NCBI GenBank assembly: GCA_031426435.1
Contig: JANPLH010000612.1
Span: 4,022-68,021, forward strand
Source of the DNA: Saprospiraceae bacterium
Lineage (GTDB): Bacteria > Bacteroidota > Bacteroidia > Chitinophagales > Saprospiraceae
Direction: 5' to 3'
Length of the DNA stretch: 64,000 nt
Shown here piece by piece: positions 519-19,775 of this stretch. The notes below the pieces were generated by a model. The model had not been told where the DNA came from. It saw only the letters and a program-made list of their open reading frames with translations, and ran no database searches. A program made the translations under genes and the position numbers. Position 1 is the stretch's first letter, and every line of letters starts with the position of its first letter.

Positions 519-1409
519 CTACTTCGTAACGATGGTCATCACCCGGTCATAACTCAACCCCGTAAAAATCCCAATCGCCCCGGCGTCTCCCTCCAAATTG
601 GAGATGATGCTGCTCGGCTGTCCGAATGGGTTGCCGTTGGCGTCAATGGCGTACTGAGTGCTTTCCCGAAAATCAAAATAAGCACGGTCAATATGGAAGA
701 TGGTGTTGTAAATCGTGTCCCCCTCCTTGAAGTCGTAGCTGGTGCCGAAGACGATGACCTTGTCATCCACGTAGTCGTCGTTGGTGGTGAAGTCCTGCTG
801 CGGTATGGAGTCTCTGAGTGAGTTTTCGTGCAACATCCGGCGATAATAATCCACCGTGGAAGGGTCGTCGGTGATGTACGTCAGGCAGCGGGCGAGCGTG
901 TCTTGCTCTTCGTTGAACTCTATCACCACACTATCAATTGGCACGACGGGCACCAAACGGGTAATGGCGGTGATGGTCTTGCCGTCAGGCGTGGTGATTT
1001 TTAACGAGAAGTCGTTGCCGTACTCGGCTGGCACCAGCGTCGTATTGACGTAGTTAAAAACCTTCAACGTGATGGGGTTGATGAAGGGTGTATTGTCCAA
1101 TTTATAGTCCACGCCATTGTGCGAGATGGTCACCTCGGCACTGTCCACGAGGATGTTCTCCACATACTCCAACGGGTCGGTCGGGAACGGTTCAAAGTAC
1201 GCCGAACTGCGGGTCAGCAGCAACGTGAACGGCTGCCCCGGCTCTAAGTAGCACTCTACCACATACTGCGGCTTGTATTCCGGCAGGTCGAGGTTGATTT
1301 CCTTTTCCAGGTTGCCGCAACTTTGAAAGGAAAATGTAAAAAGCAGGAGCGCAAAAAAAGGCCAAGAAAAGCTTTTTAAAAGGTTTGATTTTTGAAGAAA
1401 ATATTTCAT
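519..1409 (-). CDS. DUF4249-like lipoprotein, partner of the adjacent TonB-dependent receptor
   Basis: Signal peptide plus lipobox (LLLFTFSFQSCGN). About 296 aa, lying immediately downstream of a CarboxypepD_reg-type TonB receptor, which is the usual DUF4249 context. Confidence 0.6.
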   Translation of the reverse strand: MKYFLQKSNLLKSFSWPFFALLLFTFSFQSCGNLEKEINLDLPEYKPQYVVECYLEPGQPFTLLLTRSSAYFEPFPTDPLEYVENILVDSAEVTISHNGVDYKLDNTPFINPITLKVFNYVNTTLVPAEYGNDFSLKITTPDGKTITAITRLVPVVPIDSVVIEFNEEQDTLARCLTYITDDPSTVDYYRRMLHENSLRDSIPQQDFTTNDDYVDDKVIVFGTSYDFKEGDTIYNTIFHIDRAYFDFRESTQYAIDANGNPFGQPSSIISNLEGDAGAIGIFTGLSYDRVMTIVTK

Positions 1410-1484
1410 AAAGTATTGGTTGTCAAATTTTTAGTACAAAAAATAAGAAAATGTTGAAGTACGGACTGGCAGTCCGTGTTACCG

Positions 1485-3842
1485 TCAAAACTTGAAGTTC
1501 CACGTCAGCGACCCGATGATCGGGAACAGTGACACCTGCTTGGCCGCCAGCCCCGTCGGGATGGCCAACGGGTCTTCCAGCGGATCCACCCCCTCGGAGT
1601 ATTTCGGTTCGATGTAGATGAAGAACGTGTTGCGGCGGTTCGTTGCGTTGAAGACGCTCAGGGTCAGGTCGCTCTCGCCCCATTTCGGGAAGAATTTATA
1701 GACGAGGCCGAGGTCCGTCCGAAAAAAATACGGCAACGTGAAGGCGTTCCGCTCGCCGTAAACCGGCACGAATGGCTCAAAATCAGCACCGTGCACATCT
1801 TGGAACGTGAACTTGCCGACAGGCAGCCAAGCCCGGTCGCCGCTGCCGTACACCGCCGTGCCGGAGATGGTGAGCCGCTTTGTGATATCGTACATCAGTA
1901 CCACGGCGAGGTTGTGCCGACGGTCGTAGCGAGGGTAAAAATATTTGCCCTCGCCAGCGTACACTTTTGTATCGTCAATCGTCTCGAAATCGCCCCGCTT
2001 GGTCAGCGACAACGTGTAGGCGATCCAGCCTTTGAAGTCGCCGACCTTCTTCTCGATGCCCAGCTCCATGCCGTAGCCGTAGCCTTTTCCGATGGCAAAT
2101 TCGTTCTCCAAATTGTCGTTGGCGAAGAGCTGTGCGCCGTCCACGAAGTCCACTTGGTTGCGGAGTTTTTTATAATAATACTCGTTGGTAATCAGGTATT
2201 TATCCCCCAAAAGCTTCTCAAAGCCGATGGCGACTTGGTCGGAGTTTTGCGGCTTGATTTGCTTGGTGCTGGGGTACCAAATATCCGTCGGCAACGAGAT
2301 GCCGGAGGTGCTCACGAGGTGCTGGTACTGGTACATCCGGGCATAGCTGGCCTTGAACGAGAGGTCGGGGTTCACGACGTACAGCGCTGCCATCCGTGGC
2401 TCGATGCCTACATAAAACGCATCGTTTGCGAAGCCCGAAAGCCGCAGCCCGGCATTGATTTTCCAATGCTCGCCGAAGCTCATCTCGTCGGCCACATAGG
2501 CTCCGAGCGAGAGTCCCGTGAAGTCGTTCCCGCCGGAAAAGCTCACTTCGCCGTCGTCGCTGCCCGCTTTGAGGCGGCCCACGCCGAAGCTGTGGTGGGT
2601 CACGTTGCCCCCAAAACGCAGGATATGGTTGTCGTTTAGGCCGTAGTAAAAATCGGATTTCAGGTTGGCGTCCTGCACATCGGAGCCTACCTTGAAAGAG
2701 AAGCCCGTGATTTTCGTTTCGATATTATAATCGTAATCAGAGTAGGTAAACGTCAGGTTGTGAAACAGTTTTGGAGAAAAAACATGGTTCCACCTGGCAG
2801 TCCCCGTCTTGTTTCCCCAACTGAAGTCAAAGTTGAAAAAATCGCCCTCGAAGCCGAACACGTCCCGCCCGAAGTAGCCGCTGAGGTAGAGGCGGTCGTT
2901 CTCGCCGAGGTCGAAGTTCACCTTCGTGTTCAGGTCGTAGAAATAGTAGTTGGGGATAGGGTTGTATTCGGGGTCGTCGGCGTTGGCTTTGTTAAACTGC
3001 CGGGTGATAAGGTCGGCGTAGGTGCGCCGGCCGCTCACGATGAACGACGATTTGTTCTTCTCGATAGGCCCCTCCAAGGTCAAGCGGCTGCTGATTAGGC
3101 CGATGCCGCCCGTCCCGGCAAAGCGCTGGCTGTTGCCGTCCTTCATCCGCACGTCAATCACTGACGAGAGCCGCCCGCCATACTGCGCCGGGAAGCCGCC
3201 TTTGTAGAGCTTGAGGTCCTTCACCGCATCGGTGTTGAAGGTGCTGAAAAAACCGAAAAGGTGATTAGCGTTATAGACCACCGCCTCGTCCAGCACGATG
3301 AGGTTCTGGTCGCCAGCGCCGCCCCGCACGTACAGCCCCGTGTTGCCCTCCGAGGCAGACGGCATTCCAGGCTTCAGTTGGATGACCCGCAGGATGTCCG
3401 TCTCGCCTAACAGGGCGGGCAGCACCTTGGTCTCCCTCGTCGAAATTTCCTCGATGCTCATCTCCGTGGAGCGGATGGATTCCCTGAAAGCATCCGCCTT
3501 CACCACCACCTCTTGCAACTCAATACCCGTGCCGAGGCGCACATTGAGCGTCACGGCTTTTGTTGGCAAAATGCGCAGCGTCTTCGGCTGGAAGCCCACA
3601 TAGCTGTATTCGAGGGTGATGGAATCGTTGCCGAAAGGCAAGGTGAGCGAGTAAAAACCGTACTCGTTGGTAGTGGCGCCGTTGCCGCTCGTGGCTTCAT
3701 AGACGCTCGCACCGATGAGCGTCTCACCGTTGTCGTCGTCTTTCACAACACCGCTAATGGTGATTTTAGCGGTTTGCTGCGCAATGACTTGGCCAAGCAT
3801 GAATATGGACAATGCGAGCGTAAAAAGTCTTTTTGAAATCAT
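1485..3842 (-). CDS. TonB-dependent receptor with N-terminal carboxypeptidase-regulatory-like domain
   Basis: 785 aa with a signal peptide. ISGVVKDDDNGETLIGASVY is the CarboxypepD_reg-like part and DILRVIQLKPGM...GLYVRGGAGDQNLIVLDEAVVYN is the plug motif. The beta-barrel ends in an aromatic residue (WNFKF). Confidence 0.9.
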   Translation of the reverse strand: MISKRLFTLALSIFMLGQVIAQQTAKITISGVVKDDDNGETLIGASVYEATSGNGATTNEYGFYSLTLPFGNDSITLEYSYVGFQPKTLRILPTKAVTLNVRLGTGIELQEVVVKADAFRESIRSTEMSIEEISTRETKVLPALLGETDILRVIQLKPGMPSASEGNTGLYVRGGAGDQNLIVLDEAVVYNANHLFGFFSTFNTDAVKDLKLYKGGFPAQYGGRLSSVIDVRMKDGNSQRFAGTGGIGLISSRLTLEGPIEKNKSSFIVSGRRTYADLITRQFNKANADDPEYNPIPNYYFYDLNTKVNFDLGENDRLYLSGYFGRDVFGFEGDFFNFDFSWGNKTGTARWNHVFSPKLFHNLTFTYSDYDYNIETKITGFSFKVGSDVQDANLKSDFYYGLNDNHILRFGGNVTHHSFGVGRLKAGSDDGEVSFSGGNDFTGLSLGAYVADEMSFGEHWKINAGLRLSGFANDAFYVGIEPRMAALYVVNPDLSFKASYARMYQYQHLVSTSGISLPTDIWYPSTKQIKPQNSDQVAIGFEKLLGDKYLITNEYYYKKLRNQVDFVDGAQLFANDNLENEFAIGKGYGYGMELGIEKKVGDFKGWIAYTLSLTKRGDFETIDDTKVYAGEGKYFYPRYDRRHNLAVVLMYDITKRLTISGTAVYGSGDRAWLPVGKFTFQDVHGADFEPFVPVYGERNAFTLPYFFRTDLGLVYKFFPKWGESDLTLSVFNATNRRNTFFIYIEPKYSEGVDPLEDPLAIPTGLAAKQVSLFPIIGSLTWNFKF

Positions 3843-3966
3843 GTCGGGTGGATATGGAAATTAGAAATTTGGAAATTGAGGCCCCAGCTTGGCTTTTTCC
3901 AAACGAAAGATGGGCGCAAAGGTATTTGCCCCTAAAGCCTTCTTTAACATTTTTCTACGAAAAGGG

Positions 3967-3982
3967 TTCGTTGGCCAACGAA
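3967..3982 (-). terminator. Weak hairpin (perfect palindrome TTCGTTGGCCAACGAA) about 27 nt after the last gene of the 4.0-12.5 kb operon
   Basis: On the minus strand the palindrome is followed by CCCTTTTCG. The stem is short and the U-tract poor. Confidence 0.3.
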
Positions 3983-4008
3983 TGGTGGGAATTGCCAAGG
4001 GCAAGCGC

Positions 4009-4542
4009 TTACACTAATTTGTTGTTTTGAATGAACTGCTCCACTGCCTCCGTCAGCTTCCTAAAATTGGCTGGAATCATGCTGGCCATAAATGACTCTA
4101 TCCCCTGAGCAACGAGCGGCCCCGCCATTTTGATGGGCAGTGCATTGGTTTGCCAGTGCAGTGTACCCTCAAAGCTAAGCCTACATGCCTTGCCGCCCAT
4201 GGCTGCCTCAAAGGTGGTGTTGCCAATGCAGGACATCTGCTCCTTGAAATAATGCGACCGGATTTCCCATCGGCAACTACGCTGCGCTTCCTTCCAAACG
4301 GCACTGTCTGTCCAGGTAAGCATGTCTGGTTGCACCATTTTGGCCAAAAAATCGGGAAGCGGTGGCCTTGCCTTCCACACATTGACCATCAACAAATGCC
4401 CTTCCTCATTCTCGCCGCTGCTTATCGGGCTTACGCTCTCAATGTCGGGCACCGCCGCTGCGATTTCCGGGAGGTGTCCTTGCATGGTTTCCCACACCAA
4501 TGCTGTGGGGTGCTTTACGATGGTGACGGTTCTGAATTCCAT
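4009..4542 (-). CDS. SRPBCC/START-like (polyketide-cyclase/lipid-binding fold) protein, operon gene I
   Basis: The ATG at 4542 gives MEFRTVTIVKHPTALVWETM..., the typical start of an SRPBCC domain. The ORF track extends to a TTG at 4566. The length and beta/helix pattern fit the family, but there is no catalytic assignment. Confidence 0.6.
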   Translation of the reverse strand: MEFRTVTIVKHPTALVWETMQGHLPEIAAAVPDIESVSPISSGENEEGHLLMVNVWKARPPLPDFLAKMVQPDMLTWTDSAVWKEAQRSCRWEIRSHYFKEQMSCIGNTTFEAAMGGKACRLSFEGTLHWQTNALPIKMAGPLVAQGIESFMASMIPANFRKLTEAVEQFIQNNKLV

Positions 4543-4566
4543 TGTACTTGATGGGTGATTTGACAA

Positions 4567-5631
4567 CTAATTTTTCAAAGACATGCCAAAGGATTGGCGA
4601 TGAGCATAAATCTCTGGCGACAATTCCATTTGCGACCTAATAGAAGGAGAAACATGTTCACTTGCGGCCAACCATGAAATGGCTTCTATCAGGGCTGCTT
4701 TGGCGGGTCGCCCCACATAGCCCAGTTCTTCCGCCGCTTTTTGATGACTGTACCAATAGTAGTTGCCCACCATTTTAGCCTGTTCCCTGGTAGAAATTGG
4801 GCGGTCGTTGGTCAACAGGCTCAATGCTTCCTGCAATGCAGAGGCAAGGTATGCAGCGGTATGATATACCTTCAAATAGGGACCTGGCATGCCGGTAAGC
4901 GATGAAATGAGTTGGTGAATTGCTTGCCACTCCAAGTTTTCGCCCCCCAGCAGGTAGCGTTCTCCCGACCGTCCATTTTCTGCGGCTAAAACGTGCCCCT
5001 CTGCCACATCCTGCACCGAGGCAATATTGCAACCACCTATCCACGAGGTTTTGAACAAATCTTGCAAGTAGCTGACAATGTGGTGGTTGCTCTCGGTCAG
5101 CCCATAATCATGCCCGCCCACCACCACTGTCGGATGCACAGAGACAAGTTCTACTATACCGTCTTTTGCCATTTCAAAAGCGGCATCCACTTGCCCCTTT
5201 TTCGCCAAAACATAAGCAGGCGCTGACTCGATGCTGCCAGGGTGGGCCTCGTCAAGAATACGCTGTTGGCCAGTACTGCCAAAAACAACGGACGATGAGG
5301 TGAGCACCATGCGGCACACGCCCGCCGCCTTTGCCGCCGTTATTACATGCTTCACTCCTTCTTTGGCTTCGCCAATAAGCTGCTCAGGTGGCTGCCGCCA
5401 ATAACTAAAAACGCCCGCAACGTGGAACACCCATTCACAGCCCTCCATTGCAGCCGTCAAGGTGGCAGGTTGCTGTATGTCGCCAATTGCCATTTCCACA
5501 TTTAACCCTTCCAAACTTCGCAAATCACTGGTTGGCCTTATGAGCGCTCGCACGGAATGACCCTTGGCGAGCAGCGCCTGCACGACATGGCTGCCGATAA
5601 AACCGTTTGCCCCTGTAACAAGTGCTCTCAT
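4567..5631 (-). CDS. Extended SDR, NAD(P)-dependent epimerase/dehydratase or dihydroflavonol-4-reductase/HpnA-like, operon gene H
   Basis: MRALVTGANGFIGSHVVQALLAKGHSVRALIRP is a Rossmann GxxGxxG motif. The start ATG at 5631 overlaps the stop of the upstream gene (ATGA). The ORF-track N-terminal extension is not needed. Confidence 0.85.
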   Translation of the reverse strand: MRALVTGANGFIGSHVVQALLAKGHSVRALIRPTSDLRSLEGLNVEMAIGDIQQPATLTAAMEGCEWVFHVAGVFSYWRQPPEQLIGEAKEGVKHVITAAKAAGVCRMVLTSSSVVFGSTGQQRILDEAHPGSIESAPAYVLAKKGQVDAAFEMAKDGIVELVSVHPTVVVGGHDYGLTESNHHIVSYLQDLFKTSWIGGCNIASVQDVAEGHVLAAENGRSGERYLLGGENLEWQAIHQLISSLTGMPGPYLKVYHTAAYLASALQEALSLLTNDRPISTREQAKMVGNYYWYSHQKAAEELGYVGRPAKAALIEAISWLAASEHVSPSIRSQMELSPEIYAHRQSFGMSLKN

Positions 5632-7790
5632 GGCTGGTTTTGGTTGTTCAATAAATTGATGTCCTTTTTGGCCGCTGTTGCCAGCTCTCCAAATAACTGT
5701 CTCAATGCATCTGTGGCTGGATTGCTTTCGGTACTTGGGCTGAAATGGCGGTAGCCAAGGTCGTCTTGTTGCCAACTGCCGGGTTGGCCGCTTGCTTGTC
5801 GGGAGCTATTTACCAATTTTTCCACCAAACCGGAAAGCATGTTCAATAGGCCCTTCAGCTTGTCAATTTCCGGCGGCAACATGGAGGAGGGGCCATGCCC
5901 CTCTCCGAATGCCATATCAAATGCTTTACCCACCAATGGCGACCTGCCCTCATAGCTTGCTTCGAAATTTGCCATGGTACGTGAAAAGAATCGGATGTAG
6001 GAATCGGAGACCAGTGCATCTTTCACCTTCGGCAAATAGTCTATGTTGAATACTTGCCAGAACAAGGGCAGCGCAAATTTTTGCCTTGCAACGATGGAGA
6101 CCCGCACGCCACCGGGGTCTTTGGCAAAGGTGACCATGCCATCATCAAATGTTGCCGAGTTGTTGGCACTGTGAACGGTACGCCAAAAAATCTGCTGCTG
6201 CGAAAAACCGTAACGGATGACCTCTATTTTGTCCACATCAATATACTCGCCACCAAAAAGGGCCATCCAGTTTGGTTGGGGCAGGTATATGTCCCTTTCT
6301 ACCTGATAGATGGTGCGCTGCTTTCCGTCATGTTTCACTGCCTGCCTTGCTCCGCCAATATTGTCGTACATCATTTCCACGGCACGGCTGATGTCCACCC
6401 GCTCCACAAAATCGGAATACGGCACCGGGATGATTTTGGAATATTCGAACAAAACCGAATCGTCAAGGTAGCGCCAGCAGAGTCCATTGCGGTCGGGGGG
6501 CGTATGCTTCAGGATGTTGCAAAAAGGCAGAATATAGCTTTCCACCTCCTCAAAATCTTCCGTTGAAAAACTGTTTGGGTTCACGTTCAAGGCTACCGCC
6601 TTGCGGTAAAGGCGGTCTTTGTCGTACAGTATCTGCCAGGTTTCCTGAAAATGCTGCGCTCCGGCAAGCAGGTAATTCAAGGTAACCATTCCCCAAAACG
6701 CCATCGGGTGGTCGTCAAGGTCTGTTGTCAATGGGGACAGCAGGTTATTGATTTGGCCGTCGAGGATGTTTTTGAAGGGAAACAGCGAGGTGTTTACCTG
6801 AAGCAGCCATGCCTCTGCAAGCCGCTGCGAGAGCAAGGATTCATTTCGCTTGCGGGTGGACTCCCGGACATGGATGGGCACGTTCTTCCAACCAGGATAG
6901 GGTGAAAGGTCGCCGTACAATTGGTAAGATTTGGGCAAGCCTATTTTACGCAGTGCCGCTGCGTTCAATTGCGAAGCATAGGGGTCAAGCCCCATCTTTA
7001 GGGCAGCCGCCCAATCTGCCAGCAGCAAGTGGTTGCCAGCAATGATGGTATGTGTAGCAATGGGGTTGGAGCGAAGCGTTCCCTGGCTGCCGTGATTGCT
7101 CCAATAGGCATCTATGATAGCAAAGTGAACTTCGGTGCGCTCCAACAGCCCAACCACTACCTCATTCTGCGGCAACCGGTGATGGTAGTGGTAGGTTTTT
7201 GCCCGAAGCGGCAGAATGCCGAGCAAGTTGTTCAGACCGAGGGCAAAACATTGGGCTTGGTCGGTCTTGTTTTTTGAAAAAACGATGCGAAAATGCGCTT
7301 GCAACCAATGGGACGAAACTTCCGAGTTGCGAAGTGCGCTGCCTTCGGGAAAGCCGCCGTCCATCAGCGACTCTCCAAGGTCGAGCACCTCGTATTCATT
7401 GCCGTTTGGGGTGCAAAATTGGTAGCCACAAAGGTCGGCGAGCACCATGACTTCCCGGTTTTCCAGCCATTGGCCCGAAGCCCCTTCTGCATCTGCCACG
7501 GCCACCTTGGTGTAGCCTTGCTCATGAAGCAGGTCAATCAAATGCTCTACCAAGCGGGGGTCGGTGCCAGTGGTCGCCCCGCAGTCAAAAAGCTCCAAAT
7601 CTGGCTTTATCAGAATGGCCATGTCGGGCCTTTCAACGCAGCATTGCCCCCGCACAAGTTCGAGCGCTTCCCACAAACCACCCTCCTGTAAGGCTGCTTG
7701 CAATAGCTGCACTGCCGGCTCTCTGCCAGTTTTAATGGAACAGCTAACCGTGCCTGGGATGGTTTGTGTCTTTAGTGCTCGTTTTGCCAT
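5628..7790 (-). CDS. Two-domain protein: DUF362-like N-terminal domain fused to an SRPBCC/START-like C-terminal region, operon gene G
   Basis: 720 aa. ILIKPDLELFDCGATTGTDPRLVEHLIDLLHEQGY...IIDAYWSNHGSQG...AGNHLLLADWAAALKMGLDP follows the DUF362 pattern. Residues about 400-640 have an SRPBCC-like alternation, and the tail is helical. Confidence 0.6.
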   Translation of the reverse strand: MAKRALKTQTIPGTVSCSIKTGREPAVQLLQAALQEGGLWEALELVRGQCCVERPDMAILIKPDLELFDCGATTGTDPRLVEHLIDLLHEQGYTKVAVADAEGASGQWLENREVMVLADLCGYQFCTPNGNEYEVLDLGESLMDGGFPEGSALRNSEVSSHWLQAHFRIVFSKNKTDQAQCFALGLNNLLGILPLRAKTYHYHHRLPQNEVVVGLLERTEVHFAIIDAYWSNHGSQGTLRSNPIATHTIIAGNHLLLADWAAALKMGLDPYASQLNAAALRKIGLPKSYQLYGDLSPYPGWKNVPIHVRESTRKRNESLLSQRLAEAWLLQVNTSLFPFKNILDGQINNLLSPLTTDLDDHPMAFWGMVTLNYLLAGAQHFQETWQILYDKDRLYRKAVALNVNPNSFSTEDFEEVESYILPFCNILKHTPPDRNGLCWRYLDDSVLFEYSKIIPVPYSDFVERVDISRAVEMMYDNIGGARQAVKHDGKQRTIYQVERDIYLPQPNWMALFGGEYIDVDKIEVIRYGFSQQQIFWRTVHSANNSATFDDGMVTFAKDPGGVRVSIVARQKFALPLFWQVFNIDYLPKVKDALVSDSYIRFFSRTMANFEASYEGRSPLVGKAFDMAFGEGHGPSSMLPPEIDKLKGLLNMLSGLVEKLVNSSRQASGQPGSWQQDDLGYRHFSPSTESNPATDALRQLFGELATAAKKDINLLNNQNQP

Positions 7791-7798
7791 TAGTGGTT

Positions 7799-8095
7799 TT
7801 ACTTCAGCAGGTTCTCTACCGCTTTTACCGAGGCTGTGATGGAAGCCTTGGAAAACTCAGCCTGTGCATCCAGCCAGCTTTCGGCCATGTTTCGCCACAT
7901 TGTTTCTGCGTCTTCGGTCTCTATAGTTTTTAAGCCCGCCACCTTCATGGCCGACCGTTGCACCTTCAAGCCACCGTCCATGCAGGCAGTGCAGAACCGC
8001 CTCCAATCGTCAACTGCCTGCTTGGCCTGCGGGGCAGAATGCTCGCAGTAATCCAGGATGAAGGAAGAAAATGGGTTGTTTTTGTTATTCGACAT
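7799..8095 (-). CDS. Small all-helical hypothetical protein (phasin-like composition), operon gene F
   Basis: 98 aa with an ATG start, lying 8 nt upstream of gene G. There is no TM segment or signal peptide. The amphipathic helical sequence resembles the N-termini of genes C and D. Confidence 0.55.
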   Translation of the reverse strand: MSNNKNNPFSSFILDYCEHSAPQAKQAVDDWRRFCTACMDGGLKVQRSAMKVAGLKTIETEDAETMWRNMAESWLDAQAEFSKASITASVKAVENLLK

Positions 8096-8143
8096 GGTGA
8101 TAAGAATGGTTGAATTGATTGATGACGCACTTGCGCACCCATG

Positions 8144-9367
8144 TTAAGGGCTGACAAGGTAGCTGTGGTGAAATCCCAATCGGGGGTCCGCCAATTTGCC
8201 CACTAGCGGCACGAACTCTTGTATGTCGGGCATTGGCACCCGCAGCCTTAAGCTCAGGGATGGGTAATCGTAAATTGTGATATGGTTAAGCCCCCGGTTT
8301 GCCGTGAACAACAAGCTTTGGTCTTTTGAAAGTTGGGTGGCGTGCACGGAGTCCATCAACCGGAAATGGCTGACCCGCAGCGCACCTAATATATGTTCGG
8401 TGGAGGTGAAAAGGTTTGCCCGCACCAAAACATCGTAAGCGGTGGTGGCCATGGTGCGCTTATGGTTCATCACTTCCTGCAAGTCTGGTTTTTCGTCAAT
8501 AATGCGGAATTCTGAAAAGTTTTCGAGGTTGATGAACACGATGGAATGGCTGCCGCCATTGCAAAAAATCAGCTCCGTATCAGAAATGGTAACATCAGAA
8601 TTGATATGGCAAGGCATTTCCCGCCCGCATGCCCAATGCCGTACCACCCGCTTGCTGGCGGGGTCAATTTCAAAAGCGTATTCCTTGAAAAAGGCAATTG
8701 CCCATTGGTGGTAGTCTGTATGGTGCTGCGGCAATACCCTGAACGAGACGGCGTAAAAAAGGTCCTTGACCGGGTGGTTGATCAGGTGCCAGCAAGTGGC
8801 AGGAAGGTCAATGCGGGTAGTCTCCCCGGTCTGCATGTCCAATATGCCAACCATTTTGGCCTCGCCTTTTGCGCCAAAGGCGGGATTGTCCATGGAGCCG
8901 TAACAGAGGTAGCGCCGTGATGGGGTAAACTTCATGCTGTGCGGCAGCAATACCTTGTGCGGCCCCAATTTTTCACCCTTGTCCAGCCGATTGACATTGA
9001 AGCGGTAAAAGTTTTCGCCGATGGCGGCTATGAACTCCTCGTTGCTCAGCCAGGCGATGTGGGTGCTGCCTTGTATGCTGGTATTCGGCACCTCGAAGCC
9101 GAGGGTTGATTGCCGGTGCAGTTCATCCAAGGTAAGCGGGTCGTAAAAAGCAAGGTGCTGCCCGGTGGTGCCCATGTACCCCAGTTTCCGGTCAGGGCTG
9201 ATATGAACAGCATGGCCCCCAGCCATGCCATTGAAGTATTTTATTTTAAAGGCGTAGGAATTGTCGGCGGGGTCGAAAAGGAAATTGCACACACCAGCCA
9301 AGCCCTCCAATCCATTGATGCCGTTGCCATCGAGGGCGATGTGAAATGCGTATGGATAAGTTTTCAT
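8144..9367 (-). CDS. Hypothetical His-rich protein, probable beta-propeller, operon gene E
   Basis: 407 aa with an ATG start and no signal peptide. It has repeated beta-strand-rich segments and His motifs NHPVKD, PCHINSD, SVHATQ and GFHHSY. Confidence 0.6.
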   Translation of the reverse strand: MKTYPYAFHIALDGNGINGLEGLAGVCNFLFDPADNSYAFKIKYFNGMAGGHAVHISPDRKLGYMGTTGQHLAFYDPLTLDELHRQSTLGFEVPNTSIQGSTHIAWLSNEEFIAAIGENFYRFNVNRLDKGEKLGPHKVLLPHSMKFTPSRRYLCYGSMDNPAFGAKGEAKMVGILDMQTGETTRIDLPATCWHLINHPVKDLFYAVSFRVLPQHHTDYHQWAIAFFKEYAFEIDPASKRVVRHWACGREMPCHINSDVTISDTELIFCNGGSHSIVFINLENFSEFRIIDEKPDLQEVMNHKRTMATTAYDVLVRANLFTSTEHILGALRVSHFRLMDSVHATQLSKDQSLLFTANRGLNHITIYDYPSLSLRLRVPMPDIQEFVPLVGKLADPRLGFHHSYLVSP

Positions 9368-9432
9368 TGAATAGGTAAAGGCTGTTGAAGTTCTTTTTGG
9401 CGCAATTTAGTTCTCATGGTTCAAAACTCGTA

Positions 9433-10167
9433 TCAAGTTTTGGCCTTTTTTGTAGCGCTTGTTTTATTGACAGCGGCTTTTTTTGGGGTGGCTGTGCTGC
9501 TATTGGTTTCTGGTTTTTTAGCATGGACTACCAAAACAAAGGCAGTATCTTCAAACCCATCTACAATGACTTCGCAGAGATAGGTGGCTGGTTCCAGTGC
9601 AGCAGGCAGCATCACTGAAATGGTGGCTGGCACGACCTGTCCGGGTGGTATCTCAAATTGTTGTGGGTCAAAGGCAAGTCCAATATGGGCAGGTGACCCA
9701 GTATCAGCATGTACGAAACTTGTGGCCTCGAACCTGCCATATTGGGTGCCGGGTCGGCTGCTTTGCATCTGAAGGATGTTGGCGATGGTTTCGCCGGGGT
9801 GGCCTGTCATTGAGATTTGGTGGCGTTCGGCAGGGGGCGGTGGAGGTGGTGGTGGTACCGTTCTTTCCGCTGTTTGTGCAGGTTCCGCACGAGGTGTTGT
9901 TCCTTGTTGCGACAGCAAATTTGCCATACTGTTGGACCACTCAAGACCAAGGTCAATCAAGCGCTCTGTGTACTTGAGGTTCAACTGGAACAAGTCGTTC
10001 ATCCTTTGGGAAAAATTATTCCCATCAGCGCCTTTGGGCTGGTCGGACACGAGGCGTTTCATGGCCGCTGCCGAATCAGTCACCATTTGTTTATTGGCTT
10101 CCACCGACTTCTTGAAAATCCGCTCAACGTCTTTCACCCAGTCGTTTTGGCCATTTGATGTTGCCAT
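9433..10167 (-). CDS. Hypothetical protein: helical N-domain, poly-Pro linker, Ig-like beta-sandwich and Lys-rich tail; operon gene D
   Basis: 244 aa. An eight-proline run is encoded at about 9835-9860. The C-terminal part (HQISMTGHPGET...YLCEVIVDGFEDTAFVLVV) looks like a beta-sandwich. The tail is KKPETNSSTATPKKAAVNKTSATKKAKT. Confidence 0.6.
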   Translation of the reverse strand: MATSNGQNDWVKDVERIFKKSVEANKQMVTDSAAAMKRLVSDQPKGADGNNFSQRMNDLFQLNLKYTERLIDLGLEWSNSMANLLSQQGTTPRAEPAQTAERTVPPPPPPPPAERHQISMTGHPGETIANILQMQSSRPGTQYGRFEATSFVHADTGSPAHIGLAFDPQQFEIPPGQVVPATISVMLPAALEPATYLCEVIVDGFEDTAFVLVVHAKKPETNSSTATPKKAAVNKTSATKKAKT

Positions 10168-10234
10168 GTTTGTTTTTTGTTGAAAGTTGGAGGGGGTGTT
10201 GTTCTACCCCAAAACTCGAAAACCCAGAACTATT

Positions 10235-10897
10235 TCACCCCACCATACCGGGGCGCTGTTCAGGCTTTTGTTCGCAATAAAAATGGTCCTGCCAGCTTTG
10301 CCAATGCAGGAAGTATTCTTTTTCATCGAGTGGGCAGACTTCTGGCCCATTGCCGCAAGCCCTCACGTTCAATTTGAAGCAAACATTCTGGTTGACCTCA
10401 GCCTCCCGGATTACGATATCAGTCGAATAGGTATTGCCCGCTTCAAACCCCTGCATCAGGTTGACGGTCATCAGCACAGCGATGGACTGCCCCGGTTCCA
10501 GTATTACCGTGTCCCTGTTCAATAATGGTTGCATGGGAGCTGTATTTCCGTGCTGGTCAACCAATTGGCGCAACCCAATCCTGTATGTCTTGGTGGCTCC
10601 GCATTTGTTCTTGATGCTGAACGGTACTACGATGACCTCGCCCTCGCAGGCCTCCCGCACGATTTCGGCAAGGCAACGGGGAGGGCAGGTTTTCTTGGGC
10701 GGACAACAGTCACTTTGGTTTGCAGCCCTATAGGTCGGTGCAGCCATTTTGGTGTAAGCATCCCCTGCCATTTTGAGGTTGTTCTGCACCATTTGAGTCA
10801 GAAAGTCGGTGTATGCTCCATAAAATGAGGGGACCCTATTAAGAACGTTGGAAGCATCTCTCCAAAAATTGGCTTGCGGGTTTGTGGTCTCTTCCAT
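10235..10897 (-). CDS. Hypothetical Cys-rich protein: helical N-domain, CCPPKKTCPPRC linker and Ig-like beta-sandwich; operon gene C
   Basis: The ATG at 10897 gives MEETTNPQ...; the track starts at a TTG at 10927. It has 10 Cys and no signal peptide. Confidence 0.6.
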   Translation of the reverse strand: MEETTNPQANFWRDASNVLNRVPSFYGAYTDFLTQMVQNNLKMAGDAYTKMAAPTYRAANQSDCCPPKKTCPPRCLAEIVREACEGEVIVVPFSIKNKCGATKTYRIGLRQLVDQHGNTAPMQPLLNRDTVILEPGQSIAVLMTVNLMQGFEAGNTYSTDIVIREAEVNQNVCFKLNVRACGNGPEVCPLDEKEYFLHWQSWQDHFYCEQKPEQRPGMVG

Positions 10898-10977
10898 GAT
10901 GATATTGTTTTCGGTTTGGGCAGACAAGGTTGGTCAAACATTGGCAAGTCCAACAACTTAAAGCCTGCCCTCCAGTT

Positions 10978-11892
10978 TTAAGATTTTTTCTTTACCACTT
11001 TAACAGGTGGCGGCACATTAGCAGTCGGTGTAGCCGGGCGCACGGGCGCAGCGGGTTTAGGGGTGGATGAGGCTGTTGTAGTTATCGTTGAAGCTGCAGG
11101 TTTTGGCATAGGTGCAGGTTCAGGCACTGCGGGCACTATCTTGTAACTCAGGAGTTGGTCAATAATGCGGATGTCACCCTCGTAGAGCCAAGTTGGTTGA
11201 ATGTCTTTGGGCAGGGTGAAAGCAAGGTGCAACACCAGCGTTTCGCCCGGCTGTACCAACTGACCTGCTTCCCTGACCGTAACCGTAGCCCAACTGGCCA
11301 CGTCGTTTTTCATTCCTCTGATGAAAACATCAAGCGTTTCTTGCATCCCGCTTTCTTTGTCCTTGCGGAGTGCGAATGCAAGGTTTCTACAAATCAAGTC
11401 CATGTCCACGGTAGTGTTGTGCTTGATGGTTGGCACGATGACCGGGATGTTGCCTTTGTTTACCAGCAGCACCTCTTTGTTGCAGGTCTCGCCTGGTTTG
11501 GTACCGAAGAAAACAATTTCACTCGGTACCAATTCAATTTCAAGGGTTTCCTGTACTACTACCGAAATCTCCCGCTTTACACCACCAATCTCCACAGTGG
11601 AGCGGTAGGTGCCCGGTGCTGTGGATGGGTGCATGGATATGGAAAGCGTTTGGCGCCGAACCTCGCCCCCCATCAAAACAGAGTTGATGGTCAGGCCAGC
11701 TTTTGGAATGGCAACCGCAGAACGGGAACTACTCTTCGAGAAAGCCAACTCTTGAAGGAAGACTGGCTCGTTGTGGGAATTCTCCAAAGTGACGTAGCCA
11801 AGCAACGCTTGTGGCGGGCCGCTCAAGAGGATTTCTGCATCCCTGCAACCTATCTTTTCAAGCCCTTCTGCTATGAAATTTTCGGTGGTCAT
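10978..11892 (-). CDS. Hypothetical protein with two Ig/ASH/DUF1573-like beta-sandwich modules and a Pro/Ala/Thr/Lys tail; operon gene B
   Basis: 304 aa with an ATG start. SEIVFFGTKPGETCNKEVLLVNKGNIPVIV resembles ASH/DUF1573 modules. The tail is PAVPEPAPMPKPAASTITTTASSTPKPAAPVRPATPTANVPPPVKVVKKKS. Confidence 0.6.
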   Translation of the reverse strand: MTTENFIAEGLEKIGCRDAEILLSGPPQALLGYVTLENSHNEPVFLQELAFSKSSSRSAVAIPKAGLTINSVLMGGEVRRQTLSISMHPSTAPGTYRSTVEIGGVKREISVVVQETLEIELVPSEIVFFGTKPGETCNKEVLLVNKGNIPVIVPTIKHNTTVDMDLICRNLAFALRKDKESGMQETLDVFIRGMKNDVASWATVTVREAGQLVQPGETLVLHLAFTLPKDIQPTWLYEGDIRIIDQLLSYKIVPAVPEPAPMPKPAASTITTTASSTPKPAAPVRPATPTANVPPPVKVVKKKS

Positions 11893-11951
11893 GTTGCATT
11901 ATGTTATTGTGCCAAGTCAAGGTCGGCATGGTCAGTTAACGAGGTAATGAT

Positions 11952-12542
11952 TCACTTGGGATTGGCTTTTACTCCAACGTTCTGGTTCAAGGTCGGATTG
12001 CCAACGGTTTGGTCGGTAGTTCGTTGCGGAAAAGGCCGGGTATCTGGTTCACAGCAGATTGTCTCGCATTTCTCGTAGGCATTGGGCACGTATGGCTCAG
12101 TGATCACCTGCGATTCTCCGCTGAAGCATAGGGTCAAAACTTCCAGGCCGAGGAACTTGAGACATACTTGGTTGTAGTGCGGTATATGCATCCTTATCTC
12201 CGGCGTCAGCAAATCTTTGATGTCCTGTTTTGACAAATGGGGCAGGTTGAGCAGGTCTATCTGCGAACCAATGGGCATATTGGGGTCTCCCATTATCAAG
12301 GAAGCCACCGGGTTGTTTTTCTCGCCGGTTACGTGGGTGCCTATCGGTTGCGACTTCTCGCCAGTTACGTGGGTACCAATTGGCTGGGCCTTGTCACCAG
12401 TCACATGGGTACCTATCGGTTGCGACTTGTCGCCCCGGACATAAGTATTCACGGTCATTGGCATTGTAAAAATGGTCAAGCCAGTTCCAAAGTTGATGGA
12501 ATGGGTATAACTGGTCGGAATCTTAAGGGAAGGAGCTGCCAT
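11952..12542 (-). CDS. Hypothetical protein with five tandem 12-residue repeats (GDKSQPIGTHVT type) and a Cys-containing C-terminal domain; first gene (A) of the operon
   Basis: 196 aa with ATG at 12542. The repeats were verified codon by codon, and the C-terminus contains CETICCEPD. Confidence 0.6.
   Translation of the reverse strand: MAAPSLKIPTSYTHSINFGTGLTIFTMPMTVNTYVRGDKSQPIGTHVTGDKAQPIGTHVTGEKSQPIGTHVTGEKNNPVASLIMGDPNMPIGSQIDLLNLPHLSKQDIKDLLTPEIRMHIPHYNQVCLKFLGLEVLTLCFSGESQVITEPYVPNAYEKCETICCEPDTRPFPQRTTDQTVGNPTLNQNVGVKANPK
12255..12434 (-). repeat. In-frame 36-nt x 5 tandem repeat inside gene A
   Basis: Units are 12399-12434, 12363-12398 and 12327-12362 (near-identical peptides GDKSQPIGTHVT / GDKAQPIGTHVT / GEKSQPIGTHVT), then 12291-12326 and 12255-12290 (degenerate: GEKNNPVASLIM, GDPNMPIGSQID). 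Confidence 0.9.
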
Positions 12543-12672
12543 TGGGCTGAATGAAGTTTGGTGAATGGTTGGTAATCAGCGCCAATATAAAACATATTTT
12601 GCCAATATTGAAAATGGCGGGGAAAAATATTGAAAAAAACGCTTGCTGCCATAACATGCTCAATATGCAAAA

Positions 12673-13914
12673 TCAATCCAATAAAAATAACCGAAGCAAA
12701 TTCAGCGCATAGTATGCAGAGTATTGGATATTAATGAGGCGGTTCTTCGTCAGTTGCAGTTTCCTGGTGACCGTGTGTTGCCCGTCACCCACCGCAATCC
12801 ACACCGTGCCCACCGGCTTCTCAGGGGTGCCGCCATCAGGCCCGGCGATGCCGCTGGTGGCCACGGCTACGTCGGTGCCGAGCAAACGATTGGCTCCCGC
12901 CACCATCTCCCGAACGGTCTGCTCACTGACTGCACCGTACTGTTCCAGCGTCTCCAGTTTCACACCTAACTGATTCATTTTCACAGCGTTGGCATACGAA
13001 ACTACGCTGCCCATAAAGTACGCCGACGACCCCGGTACGTAGGTGACGAGGTGTGCCAAGTAGCCGCCCGTGCAGCTTTCGGCGGTGGAAAGGGTCTGGT
13101 TTTTTTCCTTCAAAATTCGGCCAATGACAATTTCCAGCGAGTCGTCGCCGTAGCCAGCGATGATTTGCGGGGGTAGCAGCCCCTCCATTTCCCGGAATTT
13201 TTCATCGAGGATTTTCTCAACCAAAACCGGATCGGCATCACTCACGGTGAGGCGCAGGCGTACCCGTGCGATAGCAGGCAAGTAGGCTAATTTCACTTGC
13301 GGCGGCAGGTTTTCTTCAAAATCCTTTAGATGCTCCGCAATGGTAGACTCGCCCTCCCCGGCAGTGAACAAGGTGCGGTGGGCGGTAGGTAGCGCATTGA
13401 ATTTTTCCTTCAACCTTGGCATTACCTCGTGCTGCATCAGGTACTCCATTTCAAAGGGTACGCCAGGCATACTGGCCACTACCTTGCCGACCTCCTCGAA
13501 CCACATACCGGGGGCGGTGCCCATTTTGTTGGTCAAAACGGTGGCATTCTGTGGCATGAGGCACTGGGTGCGCACGGCCTCGGTGATGGGCTTGCCGATG
13601 CGCTCGTAAATCTGGTTAAGCCTGTCCATCGTTGGTTGGTCGAAGACGAAGCCCACGCCATAAAAATCGGCGATGGCCTTCTTGGTCACATCGTCTTTGG
13701 TAGGGCCGAGACCGCCTGTCACCAGCACGATATCGGCCTGCTGGGTAGCCGTTTGCAATGCTCTGATGATGGCCTCGTGGTCATCGCCAACGGCCGTCCT
13801 TCCTATCACTTTTGCGCCGATTTCAAGCAGCATCTGCGCCATTTTGGCCGAGTTGGTGTCAATGATTTGCCCAATGAGCAGCTCGTCGCCAATGGTTAAA
13901 ATATGAACGTTCAT
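12673..13914 (-). CDS. cinA: CinA family protein (competence/damage-inducible; MoCF-binding plus nicotinamide-nucleotide amidase domains)
   Basis: MNVHILTIGDELLIGQIIDTNS... and C-terminal TAESCTGGYLAH...ATSGIAGPDGG. The true ATG is at 13914. The track's longer N-terminus (IPSYLIPPYL) reads through a palindromic repeat. Confidence 0.9.
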   Translation of the reverse strand: MNVHILTIGDELLIGQIIDTNSAKMAQMLLEIGAKVIGRTAVGDDHEAIIRALQTATQQADIVLVTGGLGPTKDDVTKKAIADFYGVGFVFDQPTMDRLNQIYERIGKPITEAVRTQCLMPQNATVLTNKMGTAPGMWFEEVGKVVASMPGVPFEMEYLMQHEVMPRLKEKFNALPTAHRTLFTAGEGESTIAEHLKDFEENLPPQVKLAYLPAIARVRLRLTVSDADPVLVEKILDEKFREMEGLLPPQIIAGYGDDSLEIVIGRILKEKNQTLSTAESCTGGYLAHLVTYVPGSSAYFMGSVVSYANAVKMNQLGVKLETLEQYGAVSEQTVREMVAGANRLLGTDVAVATSGIAGPDGGTPEKPVGTVWIAVGDGQHTVTRKLQLTKNRLINIQYSAYYALNLLRLFLLD

Positions 13915-19148: not shown

Positions 19149-19610
19149 ATGAAAAAAATCGCCTTTTTCGCCCTGATGCTTTTTGCCGCAAGCACCGTTT
19201 TTGCGCAGCAAAGCCCTGTCAAATGGTCGTATGAAGCCAAAAAAGTGGCCGATGCCCCCAAAGGAGAAACTCAGTACGACCTCGTTTTCACCGCCCATAT
19301 CTCCGATGGCTGGTACGTTTATTCCCAATACCTCGAAAGCGACGACGGGCCTATCCGCACGTCATTTACTTACGAGGCCAATGCTTCCCTAAAAATGGAG
19401 GGCAAAAACCTGGAAGAAGGCCACAAGTACGAGGGCTACGATGACCTCTTCGGCATGAACATCATCAAGTTCAAAGGCAATACGACCTTCACGCAGCGGG
19501 TAAAAATCTCGGCACCTACCAAGCTAAAGGGCAGCTTGGAGTTCATGACCTGCGACAGCGAGCGCTGCCTCCCCCCCGTTGAAGTTCCTTTCTGGTTTGA
19601 CTTGAAGTGA
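19149..19610 (+). CDS. Stand-alone DsbD-alpha (N-terminal domain)-like periplasmic protein
   Basis: 153 aa with a signal peptide. DGWYVYSQYL and FMTCDSERCLPP (C-x4-C). It is clearly paralogous to the first domain of the downstream DsbD. Confidence 0.75.
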   Translation: MKKIAFFALMLFAASTVFAQQSPVKWSYEAKKVADAPKGETQYDLVFTAHISDGWYVYSQYLESDDGPIRTSFTYEANASLKMEGKNLEEGHKYEGYDDLFGMNIIKFKGNTTFTQRVKISAPTKLKGSLEFMTCDSERCLPPVEVPFWFDLK

Positions 19611-19616
19611 TAGCTT

Positions 19617-19703
19617 CACGGTTTCACTGTTTCATGGCTTTATGGCTCCATTGTTTTATTGGCTGTGCCCCTGACAATGAAGCCATGAAACAATGAAACC
19701 ATG
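19617..19703. repeat. Palindromic intergenic element (GTTTCATGG word family)
   Basis: The arms are CACGGTTTCACTGTTTCATGGCTT (19617-19640) and AAGCCATGAAACAATGAAACCATG (19680-19703), with 2 mismatches over 24 bp. Confidence 0.85.
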
Positions 19704-19775
19704 CATTACCTTTGCAAGCTTTTAAAAAACACCTACATAGCGGGCTGTCCCCGCTTTTATTTCAAAAAATTAGAC

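Follow-up and report, generated by a model that had tools for sequence, protein, structure and literature searches.

A horizontally moving gene cluster with an unnamed beta-propeller protein is conserved across bacterial phyla and probably encodes an unstudied cell component or pathway

A 64,000-nucleotide (nt) stretch of DNA from a Saprospiraceae bacterium (contig JANPLH010000612.1 of assembly GCA_031426435.1; the whole stretch is called the window below) contains nine genes, here named A to I in 5' to 3' order, that lie head to tail on the minus strand and form one conserved unit. One of them, E, encodes a His-rich beta-propeller protein without a name, a Pfam family or a solved relative. 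We conclude that the cluster is real, strongly conserved, horizontally moving and uncharacterised, and that it probably represents a cell component or pathway that nobody has studied. The genes, their order, their co-inheritance, the lack of export signals and the folds and domains of E, G and H are established. As a tentative reading, we propose that a core, E-(F)-G-H-I, handles a hydrophobic ligand and that an accessory scaffold, A-D, gathers this core into a cytoplasmic body.

One representative genome per species was scanned for E, covering 185,579 species (GTDB representatives). Relatives, 59-88% identical to E, were detected in 354 stretches, i.e., species-level genomes, which amounts to a patchy distribution. 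Among the best 80 of these 354 E-bearing loci, E identity is 59-78%, and the hosts belong to the Saprospiraceae, Chitinophagales, Ignavibacteria, Gamma-, Beta- and Alphaproteobacteria, Chloroflexota, Nitrospirota, Verrucomicrobiota and Acidobacteriota, as well as to the Acidimicrobiia and other Actinomycetota, Myxococcota, Gemmatimonadota and Binatia and to the cyanobacterium Nodosilinea. In all, the cluster recurs in hundreds of bacterial species of a dozen phyla; these bacteria live in soil, freshwater, wastewater and marine habitats or as symbionts.

The 80 loci were compared by tblastn with the nine window proteins, by clustering of open reading frames (ORFs) and with iterative family hidden Markov models (HMMs). 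In 47 of them, here called fully flanked, the full 10 kb is available on both sides of E. The genes E, G, H and I occur together in 45 of these 47 loci (G in 46, H in 46 and I in all 47). A is present in 29 fully flanked loci, and its family in 39 of the 80 loci overall. B, C and D belong to a single family of paralogues, termed the S family, which is represented in 30 of the 47 loci, with exactly three copies in 23 of them and two copies in 7. In 28 fully flanked loci, A and one or more S-family genes are combined with E and G; the core is joined there by A and at least two S-family genes, always in the order A-B-C-D. In 17 fully flanked loci, A-D were not found within 10 kb. Of the 80 loci, 13 have F, placed between E and G; they derive from Bacteroidota, Ignavibacteria and one Chloroflexi metagenome-assembled genome. 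The order A-B-C-D is constant in Bacteroidota, a gammaproteobacterial tubeworm symbiont, a cyanobacterium, Acidimicrobiia and Sphingomonadales, and the A-D and G-H-I blocks are oriented co-directionally, convergently or divergently relative to E.

A first-pass annotation, made from the window sequence alone, had proposed that the nine genes belong together, and the co-localisation of their homologues across phyla bears this out. The same annotation had seen in the cluster a combination of scaffold-like proteins with a small-molecule module. The unit can now be divided into two modules: E-G-H-I form a near-universal core, A-B-C-D are accessory and F is lineage-restricted, which makes the small-molecule side primary and the scaffold side secondary.

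Haliscomenobacter hydrossis DSM 1100, a type strain in culture whose genome is complete, also carries the cluster (positions 5920-13906 of locus L161; about 6.261-6.269 Mb of CP002691.1). This strain lacks F, and its A, B, C, D, E, G, H and I proteins comprise 176, 263, 223, 245, 421, 711, 348 and 167 amino acids (aa), respectively; a gene for an AraC-type regulator lies 1.3 kb upstream. The core is carried by Pacificimonas pallii WHA3 and Roseateles sp. DB2 as well.

The genes flanking the cluster in the window, cinA and birA on one side and the genes for a TonB-dependent receptor and a DUF4249 protein on the other, are essentially never kept, with one weak birA-like and one weak TonB-like match in the 80 loci. 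A Pfam census of the flanks returned 138 different families among 140 flanking ORFs, and PAP2 alone recurs. Gene content and order are thus preserved in more than 10 phyla amid varying flanks, which indicates that the cluster moves as a unit. A relocation of this kind is seen between close relatives. In the nearest relative of the window locus (L164; GCA_009612935.1, WBZM01000356.1, positions 3031-11306), E is 88% identical and all nine genes including F are present, but the cluster sits between a DUF2238 gene and gluconate 2-dehydrogenase genes and not between cinA and a TonB-dependent receptor gene. The comparison with other loci also confirmed the boundaries of the cluster at positions 4009 and 12542 and the leader in front of A. 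No match to E was obtained in a plasmid collection searched by tblastn or in viral contigs. A recent horizontal acquisition in the Saprospiraceae genome itself was considered and rejected, because the GC content of the cluster, 0.49-0.55 in 1-kb windows, lies inside the range of its flanks.

The patchy distribution over 354 of 185,579 species might also be expected of a chance juxtaposition of unrelated genes or of an anti-phage defence island, and both are extremely improbable. Chance is refuted by an order and a content that are conserved across phyla while the flanks vary. A role in defence is contradicted by the lack of any PADLOC match (0 families for all nine proteins), by the absence of E from the plasmid and viral collections and by a sequence conservation far above that usual for defence genes.

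Comparison with known families left most of the cluster without a name. Searches of A, B, C, E and F against Pfam, NCBIfam and PADLOC yielded nothing, and neither single sequences nor profiles of E, G, A, D and I found a significant match among PDB sequences. No published description of the cluster was found among open-access papers and bioRxiv, and no set of matches places most of the nine proteins in one known pathway, in line with the earlier statement that they fit none that has been described. Only generic memberships hold, i.e., DUF362, START fold, extended short-chain dehydrogenase/reductase (SDR) and beta-propeller. The cluster is new with respect to described systems in the sense that its kind can be assigned to none of them.

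Among the proteins of the cluster, E changes far more slowly than its partners. In inter-phylum comparisons of the same loci, identity is 59-68% for E, compared with 35-50% for G, 40-51% for H, 21-42% for I and 22-48% for A-D, which indicates that E is under unusually strong constraint. Its conservation between phyla is comparable to that of core informational proteins. The best 120 of 834 E homologues are all 64-88% identical along the whole length, and all canonical E proteins fall in one 50%-identity cluster, besides which there are about a dozen divergent full-length relatives. A profile of E returned only 190 matches from 1.84 billion representative proteins, so that E constitutes an isolated family.

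The AlphaFold model of E, with a predicted local distance difference test score (pLDDT) of 80 and a predicted template modelling score (pTM) of 0.84, is a propeller of seven four-stranded blades closed by the C-terminal strand. Foldseek returned 1734 propeller matches to this model in the PDB; the top matches are mixed (NirN, G-beta, the QHNDH beta subunit and hydrazine synthase), with template modelling (TM) scores of 0.5-0.6. For the named propeller enzyme families (lactonase, cd1/NirN, nitrous oxide reductase, carotenoid cleavage oxygenase and WD40), E has neither a Pfam or NCBIfam match nor a clear best structural match; far sub-threshold matches to THOC3, WD40 and Lactonase were seen in three E homologues only.

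E contains 23 His residues. Positions kept at 25-40% identity are D13, G14, H52, T102-H103, H143, W193-H194, S257-D258, R358-G359, N361 and H400-H401, and when these positions are set against the predicted strands, most of the His residues among them come where the innermost strand begins in one blade after another. In the model, this suggests a His-lined central channel with a metal or active site, and E is probably a metal-dependent enzyme. Propellers with metal centres held by inner-strand His ligands include the CuZ site of nitrous oxide reductase and the carotenoid cleavage oxygenases. E resembles these in its seven blades, in the His at the innermost-strand start of most blades and in its HH pair. 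It differs from them in having no sequence match to either, in not finding them among its top Foldseek matches and in its cytoplasmic location, and its His residues are possibly structural.

For G, a DUF362-like domain fused to an SRPBCC/START-like domain had been predicted, and both parts were recovered. Residues 59-263 match Pfam DUF362 (PF04015) above threshold, with an E-value of 4e-18 and 66.5 bits against a cut-off of 24, and PF04015 is carried by all 120 G homologues listed. The AlphaFold model (pLDDT 80) contains a beta-alpha-alpha-beta6-alpha unit of helix-grip type at about residues 438-613. Its Foldseek matches are START-fold structures, namely StAR (3p0l, E-value 9e-6), MLN64, STARD5, CERT, TTHA0849 and TcmN-type structures, which span E-values from 9e-6 to 1e-3 at TM scores of about 0.5-0.64 on the target. 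The LarA structure 9eia also appears among the G matches (E-value 8e-4), which fits the placement of DUF362 and the LarA N-domain in one Pfam clan, CL0471 (PMC11770544). An identity of G as a LarA nickel-pincer racemase was nevertheless rejected, since G has DUF362 and not DUF2088, lacks the LarA C-domain and is accompanied by no larB, larC or larE in the cluster or its flanks.

The assignment of H as an extended SDR was likewise upheld. The protein has the GxxGxxG motif (GANGFIGSH) and the YxxxK motif (YVLAK), and it matches the Pfam families Epimerase (1e-23) and 3Beta_HSD (3e-18), both above cut-off. In NCBIfam it aligns over its full length with HpnA (TIGR03466; 273 bits against a cut-off of 368) and further with SdmB (141 against 600 bits) and OleD (79-88 against 580 bits). 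As judged from its sequence, H is a catalytically intact extended SDR in the neighbourhood of HpnA, 3-beta-HSD, SdmB and OleD. The HpnA, SdmB and OleD pathways themselves were rejected because H stays below every curated cut-off and neither the cluster nor its flanks contain shc/hpn, sdmA or oleABC genes.

The proposal that I, too, is SRPBCC/START-like stood only in part, as matches to this clan exist but all fall below threshold and occur in few family members. The window protein matches DUF2505 (E-value 5e-4) and Polyketide_cyc2 (4e-3), both below cut-off, and these families are matched by 5 and 4 of 29 members of the I family, respectively, with a best E-value of 1.4e-5. An I profile gave no significant match to PDB sequences, and the alignment of the I family with the G C-domain by hhalign was not significant.

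A pairing of START/SRPBCC and SDR proteins exists in the yeast coenzyme Q synthome, where COQ10 is found with COQ11. In comparison with such pairs (COQ10/COQ11, StAR-type carriers, aromatase/cyclases), the cluster is similar in the fold of the G C-domain, in the SRPBCC-clan matches of I and in the translationally coupled SDR gene between the two. It differs in that G and I show no sequence-detectable membership of a named SRPBCC family and that the cluster contains no genes for quinone, sterol or polyketide biosynthesis.

Further indications of the chemistry involved came from genes next to E in other genomes. In 18 of the 80 loci, from Proteobacteria, Nitrospirota and Acidobacteriota, E is adjoined by a gene for a PAP2 membrane lipid-phosphate phosphatase (L019, L024, L026, L027, L029, L033, L035, L037, L039, L045, L053, L057, L060-L062, L065, L071 and L074), which lies at about 9.1-10.0 kb in the full-length loci and has no counterpart in the window. 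The closest named family, below cut-off, is the undecaprenyl-diphosphatase SepP. Furthermore, a metagenome scan with a four-sequence alignment as the query uncovered a sister subfamily whose members are about 40% identical to E and never have A-D or G-I nearby (metagenome contigs L081-L113, L115, L127, L146, L151-L153 and L156-L160). In 42 of 44 loci the sister propeller adjoins a gene for a stand-alone, 280-aa catalytic domain of the 2-oxoacid-dehydrogenase acyltransferase type (PF00198, E-value 1.6e-28), and 21 loci have an AraC regulator with a SpoIIAA-like domain. The sister propeller and its PF00198 partner are a second uncharacterised, two-gene system, and their pairing speaks for an enzymatic role of E-family propellers in acyl or lipid chemistry and against their being pure scaffolds.

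On the scaffold side, the five tandem repeats of 12 residues and the Cys-containing C-domain ascribed to A in the first-pass annotation were both found again. Tandem Repeats Finder (TRF) reports a 36-nt period in 3.2 copies, which at the protein level corresponds to five 12-residue xGD/ExxxPIGTHVT units plus two degenerate ones, and the Cys-bearing C-domain pattern, R.H.P.HY..F..FG.E.....CGE.Q.I.E.Y.....E.C, is conserved across lineages. The repeats take the 12-residue form xGDxxxPIxT in Bacteroidota and the 9-11-residue form V.ELP.I elsewhere, and their copy number varies. No match to A was found in Pfam, NCBIfam or the PDB. Short, lineage-variable tandem repeats beside a conserved domain would also be compatible with A being a multi-core precursor, modified in its repeats by E, G and H in the manner of ribosomally synthesized and post-translationally modified peptides (RiPPs). 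We regard this as highly improbable, because the cluster encodes neither a protease nor a transporter and contains no known family for the recognition or maturation of RiPPs, the repeats of A have no flanking cleavage motifs and A is missing from about 40% of the loci that keep E-G-H-I. CsoS2 and CcmM are repeat-motif organisers of carboxysomes. With these A shares a lineage-variable number of tandem motifs, a conserved terminal domain and a gene position beside those of possible partners; A has no sequence relation to them, however, and the cluster lacks a bacterial microcompartment (BMC) shell, Rubisco and carbonic anhydrase.

The paralogy of B, C and D emerged from profile searches, in which the C- and D-type HMMs merged at the first iteration and B followed later. 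Beta-sandwiches had been proposed for all three, and S-family members show weak matches to Ig-like families (fn3_5 in 7 members, NEW3 in 2 with a best E-value of 2.5e-6, HYDIN-Ig and FixG_C); two sandwiches in B, as originally suggested, are weakly supported. Because of its fast evolution, D retrieved no protein but itself in a word-based homologue search, and its profile matched only generic helical bundles and Ig domains in the PDB.

C-type proteins are rich in Cys in every phylum (7-25 residues), and many end in CxCxCC. In the window protein, Cys residues clamp the sandwich, with CCPPKKTCPPRC before and HFYC after it. Across phyla, conservation reaches at least 90% for Cys64 and Cys71 and is complete for Cys208, and C-type proteins carry C..C-P-P-x3-C-P-P-x-C or CxxCxPDxCxCRCC before the sandwich and W..HF.C or a terminal CxCxCC after it. 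The clamp is probably a Zn-type site.

These residues raise the alternative that the cluster serves in metal handling and stores, buffers or inserts Zn or a different thiophilic metal, held by the Cys-rich proteins C and A and by the His-lined E. Besides the clamp and the Cys content of C-type proteins, the conserved Cys residues in the A C-domain and the one conserved His per blade and HH pair of E would agree with such a function, and so would the neighbourhood of the core in a group of ten alphaproteobacterial loci (L060, L062, L065, L071, L072 and L075-L079), where a gene for a zur-like FUR-family regulator and znuA/znuC/znuB abut E-G-H-I at about 5.9-9.1 kb. This adjacency hints at a link to metals, but it is confined to one closely related lineage in which A-D themselves were not found within 10 kb. 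Two START/SRPBCC pockets, an SDR and PAP2 would be left unexplained, and the cluster contains no known metallochaperone or transporter family. Altogether, we consider metal handling improbable as the function of the cluster.

The N-terminal helices of C and D are strongly amphipathic, with hydrophobic moments of 0.58 for residues 9-27 of C and 0.63 for D. D also matches Phasin_2 with an E-value of 0.0017 and 19 bits, below the cut-off of 24.9, and weak Phasin matches were obtained for 2 of 59 S-family members and 1 of 14 F members. For F, matches to ApoLp-III and Phasin_2 are faint and limited to single members, and its alignment with the D N-domain by hhalign was not significant. A polyhydroxyalkanoate (PHA) granule system was rejected, given the sub-threshold Phasin_2 match of D and the lack of PHA synthase and depolymerase genes in the cluster and its recurrent flanks. 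The PhaP/PhaF phasins of Pseudomonas have histone-like tails, and TadA of Rhodococcus is a lipid-droplet protein. Points of likeness to these proteins are the amphipathic helical N-domains of C and D, the polycationic, often Lys/Pro/Ala-rich tails of B and D and the weak Phasin_2 matches of D and one other S-family member. In contrast to them, the helical domain in the cluster is fused to a putative Ig-like sandwich, and the cluster contains no PHA synthase, depolymerase or wax ester synthase/diacylglycerol acyltransferase (WS/DGAT).

Tails rich in Lys/Arg and in Pro/Ala/Thr, of the histone-H1 type, recur on B- or D-type proteins across many phyla. They could be taken to mean that the products form a nucleoid-associated or DNA-protective complex in which the tails of B and D bind DNA and the remaining proteins modulate chromatin or stress tolerance. 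However, the tails are missing in many orthologues and switch between B and D, the core genes encode lipid-pocket and oxidoreductase proteins, and a Pfam scan of the nine proteins revealed no DNA-binding domains, which makes this possibility very unlikely.

All nine proteins look cytoplasmic, as had been supposed. None has a transmembrane-grade segment, the highest Kyte-Doolittle mean over 19-residue windows being 1.40 at a criterion of 1.6, and none has a signal-peptide-like N-terminus. The products of the two adjoining outer-membrane genes, unlike the cluster proteins, do have hydrophobic N-termini. The domain guesses of the first-pass annotation proved almost all correct. Pfam and NCBIfam scans of the nine proteins detected no BMC-H/P shell protein, HK97-fold encapsulin or GvpA, and the cluster was accordingly rejected as a BMC, encapsulin or gas vesicle system for want of the defining shell families.

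Taken together, we tentatively favour a reading in which E-(F)-G-H-I would together bind a hydrophobic small molecule in the cytoplasm and convert it. The most likely ligand would be isoprenoid-like or else a long-chain lipid; isoprenoid or acyl lipids are suggested by the PAP2 genes of some phyla and by the acyltransferase that accompanies the E sister clade. G and I would provide two helix-grip (START/SRPBCC) lipid pockets, to which G adds a LarA-like DUF362 domain. H, whose SDR type catalyses the oxidation or reduction of bulky secondary alcohols and ketones, would perform a redox step, and E a probable metal-dependent step. A would act through its multivalent tandem short linear motifs and B, C and D as Ig-like adaptors, and A-D would most likely gather the core proteins into a cytoplasmic multiprotein body. 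The amphipathic helices of C and D could place this body on a hydrophobic surface, and the polycationic tails of B and D could place it on the nucleoid or another polyanion; the Cys clamp, too, could help to anchor the enzymes. A more specific version, namely a new kind of cytoplasmic body in the form of a protein-scaffolded, possibly lipid-cored and nucleoid-tethered inclusion with its own enzymes, spread horizontally through at least a dozen phyla, appears unlikely at present.

The strongest competitor is a purely metabolic operon. In this case, E, G, H and I, with PAP2 in some phyla, would be soluble enzymes that make or remodel a lipid or another hydrophobic metabolite, and A-D would be carrier, regulatory or substrate proteins, for example Cys-modified ones. 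The universal core and the 17 fully flanked loci without A-D nearby speak for such an operon, as do the E sister clade that is paired with an acyltransferase only, the intact catalytic motifs of H, the 18 loci with a PAP2 neighbour and the frequent CxCxCC end of C-type proteins. On the other hand, the cluster lacks a synthase, ligase, transporter or other enzyme for a committed step. It would be unusual for a plain pathway to include four conserved proteins that are not enzymes, keep a fixed order and show repeat, Ig and polycationic features, and near-housekeeping conservation over the whole of E is atypical for enzymes of secondary metabolism. We judge the purely metabolic explanation rather unlikely.

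Several observations weigh against the scaffolded core that we favour. E is equally conserved in the 17 loci that have no A-D within 10 kb, so the constraint on E cannot be due to the scaffold, which may be dispensable. Instead of being metal ligands, the conserved histidines of E could be structural, like the GH histidine of WD40 repeats, and Foldseek found neither a specific PDB relative nor a specific enzyme relative of E. The phasin-type matches, being below threshold, may reflect composition. PAP2 active sites usually face the periplasm, which is awkward for a cytoplasmic pathway. Finally, function is inferred throughout, and this applies to the assembly, the ligand, the metal and the activity alike.

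The nine ORFs, spanning positions 4009-12542 on the minus strand, were re-derived from the window sequence and agree with those reported earlier (Table 1). The recomputed spacers from A to I are 59, 80 (50 from the TTG start), 67, 65, 48, 8, -4 and 24 nt, equal to the earlier values. An independent gene call in another public assembly of the same DNA gave 196, 304, 220, 244, 407 and 98 aa for A-F.

Table 1. Genes of the cluster and the leader, with positions in the window
Feature	Position	Strand	Product or description
A	11952-12542	-	196 aa; scaffold-like, tandem 12-residue units and conserved C-domain
B	10978-11892	-	304 aa; putative Ig-like beta-sandwich protein of the S family, Pro/Ala/Thr/Lys-rich polycationic tail
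C	10235-10897	-	220 aa from ATG, 230 aa from TTG at 10927; amphipathic N-helix, Cys clamp, putative Ig-like sandwich
D	9433-10167	-	244 aa; amphipathic helical N-domain, Pro8 linker, putative Ig-like sandwich, Lys-rich tail
E	8144-9367	-	407 aa; seven-bladed beta-propeller, helical insert at about 296-330
F	7799-8095	-	98 aa; small, probably helical, lineage-restricted
G	5628-7790	-	720 aa; DUF362 N-domain, helical middle, START/SRPBCC helix-grip domain (about 438-613), helical tail
H	4567-5631	-	354 aa; NAD(P)-dependent extended SDR, start overlaps G stop (ATGA)
I	4009-4542	-	177 aa; small SRPBCC-like protein
Leader	12543-12672	-	130 nt; probable promoter

The leader had been described as carrying repeated words, and this is the case: the 11-mer AATATTGAAAA occurs in exactly two copies in the 64-kb window, both of them in the leader. 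On the coding strand, the leader contains two exact TTTTCAATATT words and a TATATTGG box near the Bacteroidetes -7 consensus TAnnTTTG. The suggestion that the words are an operator was not supported. AATATTGAAAA is missing in front of A in 10 further Bacteroidota loci; a Bacteroidetes-type TAnnTTTG box is present in several of these (e.g., L001, L004, L005 and L015). In L164, one copy and the -7-like box are conserved: a TTTTCAAT word precedes a TAnnTTGG box, close to the -7 consensus, by about 20 nt. This position fits the -33 region of a promoter, which is a more economical explanation than an operator. On these sequence grounds, the leader word is more likely promoter sequence. An Rfam scan of the region gave no match at E-values up to 1, and scans for intrinsic terminators and sigma-70 promoters returned sites no more numerous than in shuffled sequence.

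Directly downstream of I, 166 nt away and co-directional with it, lie the genes for the TonB-dependent receptor and a DUF4249-like lipoprotein (window positions 519-3842, minus strand). Despite the common strand, this pair is a separate unit, because it is not conserved beside the cluster in other genomes. Elsewhere in the window (positions 19149-22316, plus strand), a gene encodes a DsbD-like thiol:disulfide interchange membrane protein of 871 aa whose N-terminal region repeats a module of ~150 aa. It is preceded by a separate 153-aa gene that contains one further copy of the module with its own signal-like N-terminus.

A cluster that is present in at least 354 species-level genomes and still entirely uncharacterised marks a sizeable gap in bacterial cell biology. 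Its solution would assign functions to six or more orphan families and to DUF362, and it could reveal new enzyme chemistry for a His-lined propeller. The cluster is experimentally accessible in the cultured, complete-genome host H. hydrossis DSM 1100. If the scaffold reading is true, the cluster would represent a new type of bacterial subcellular compartment.

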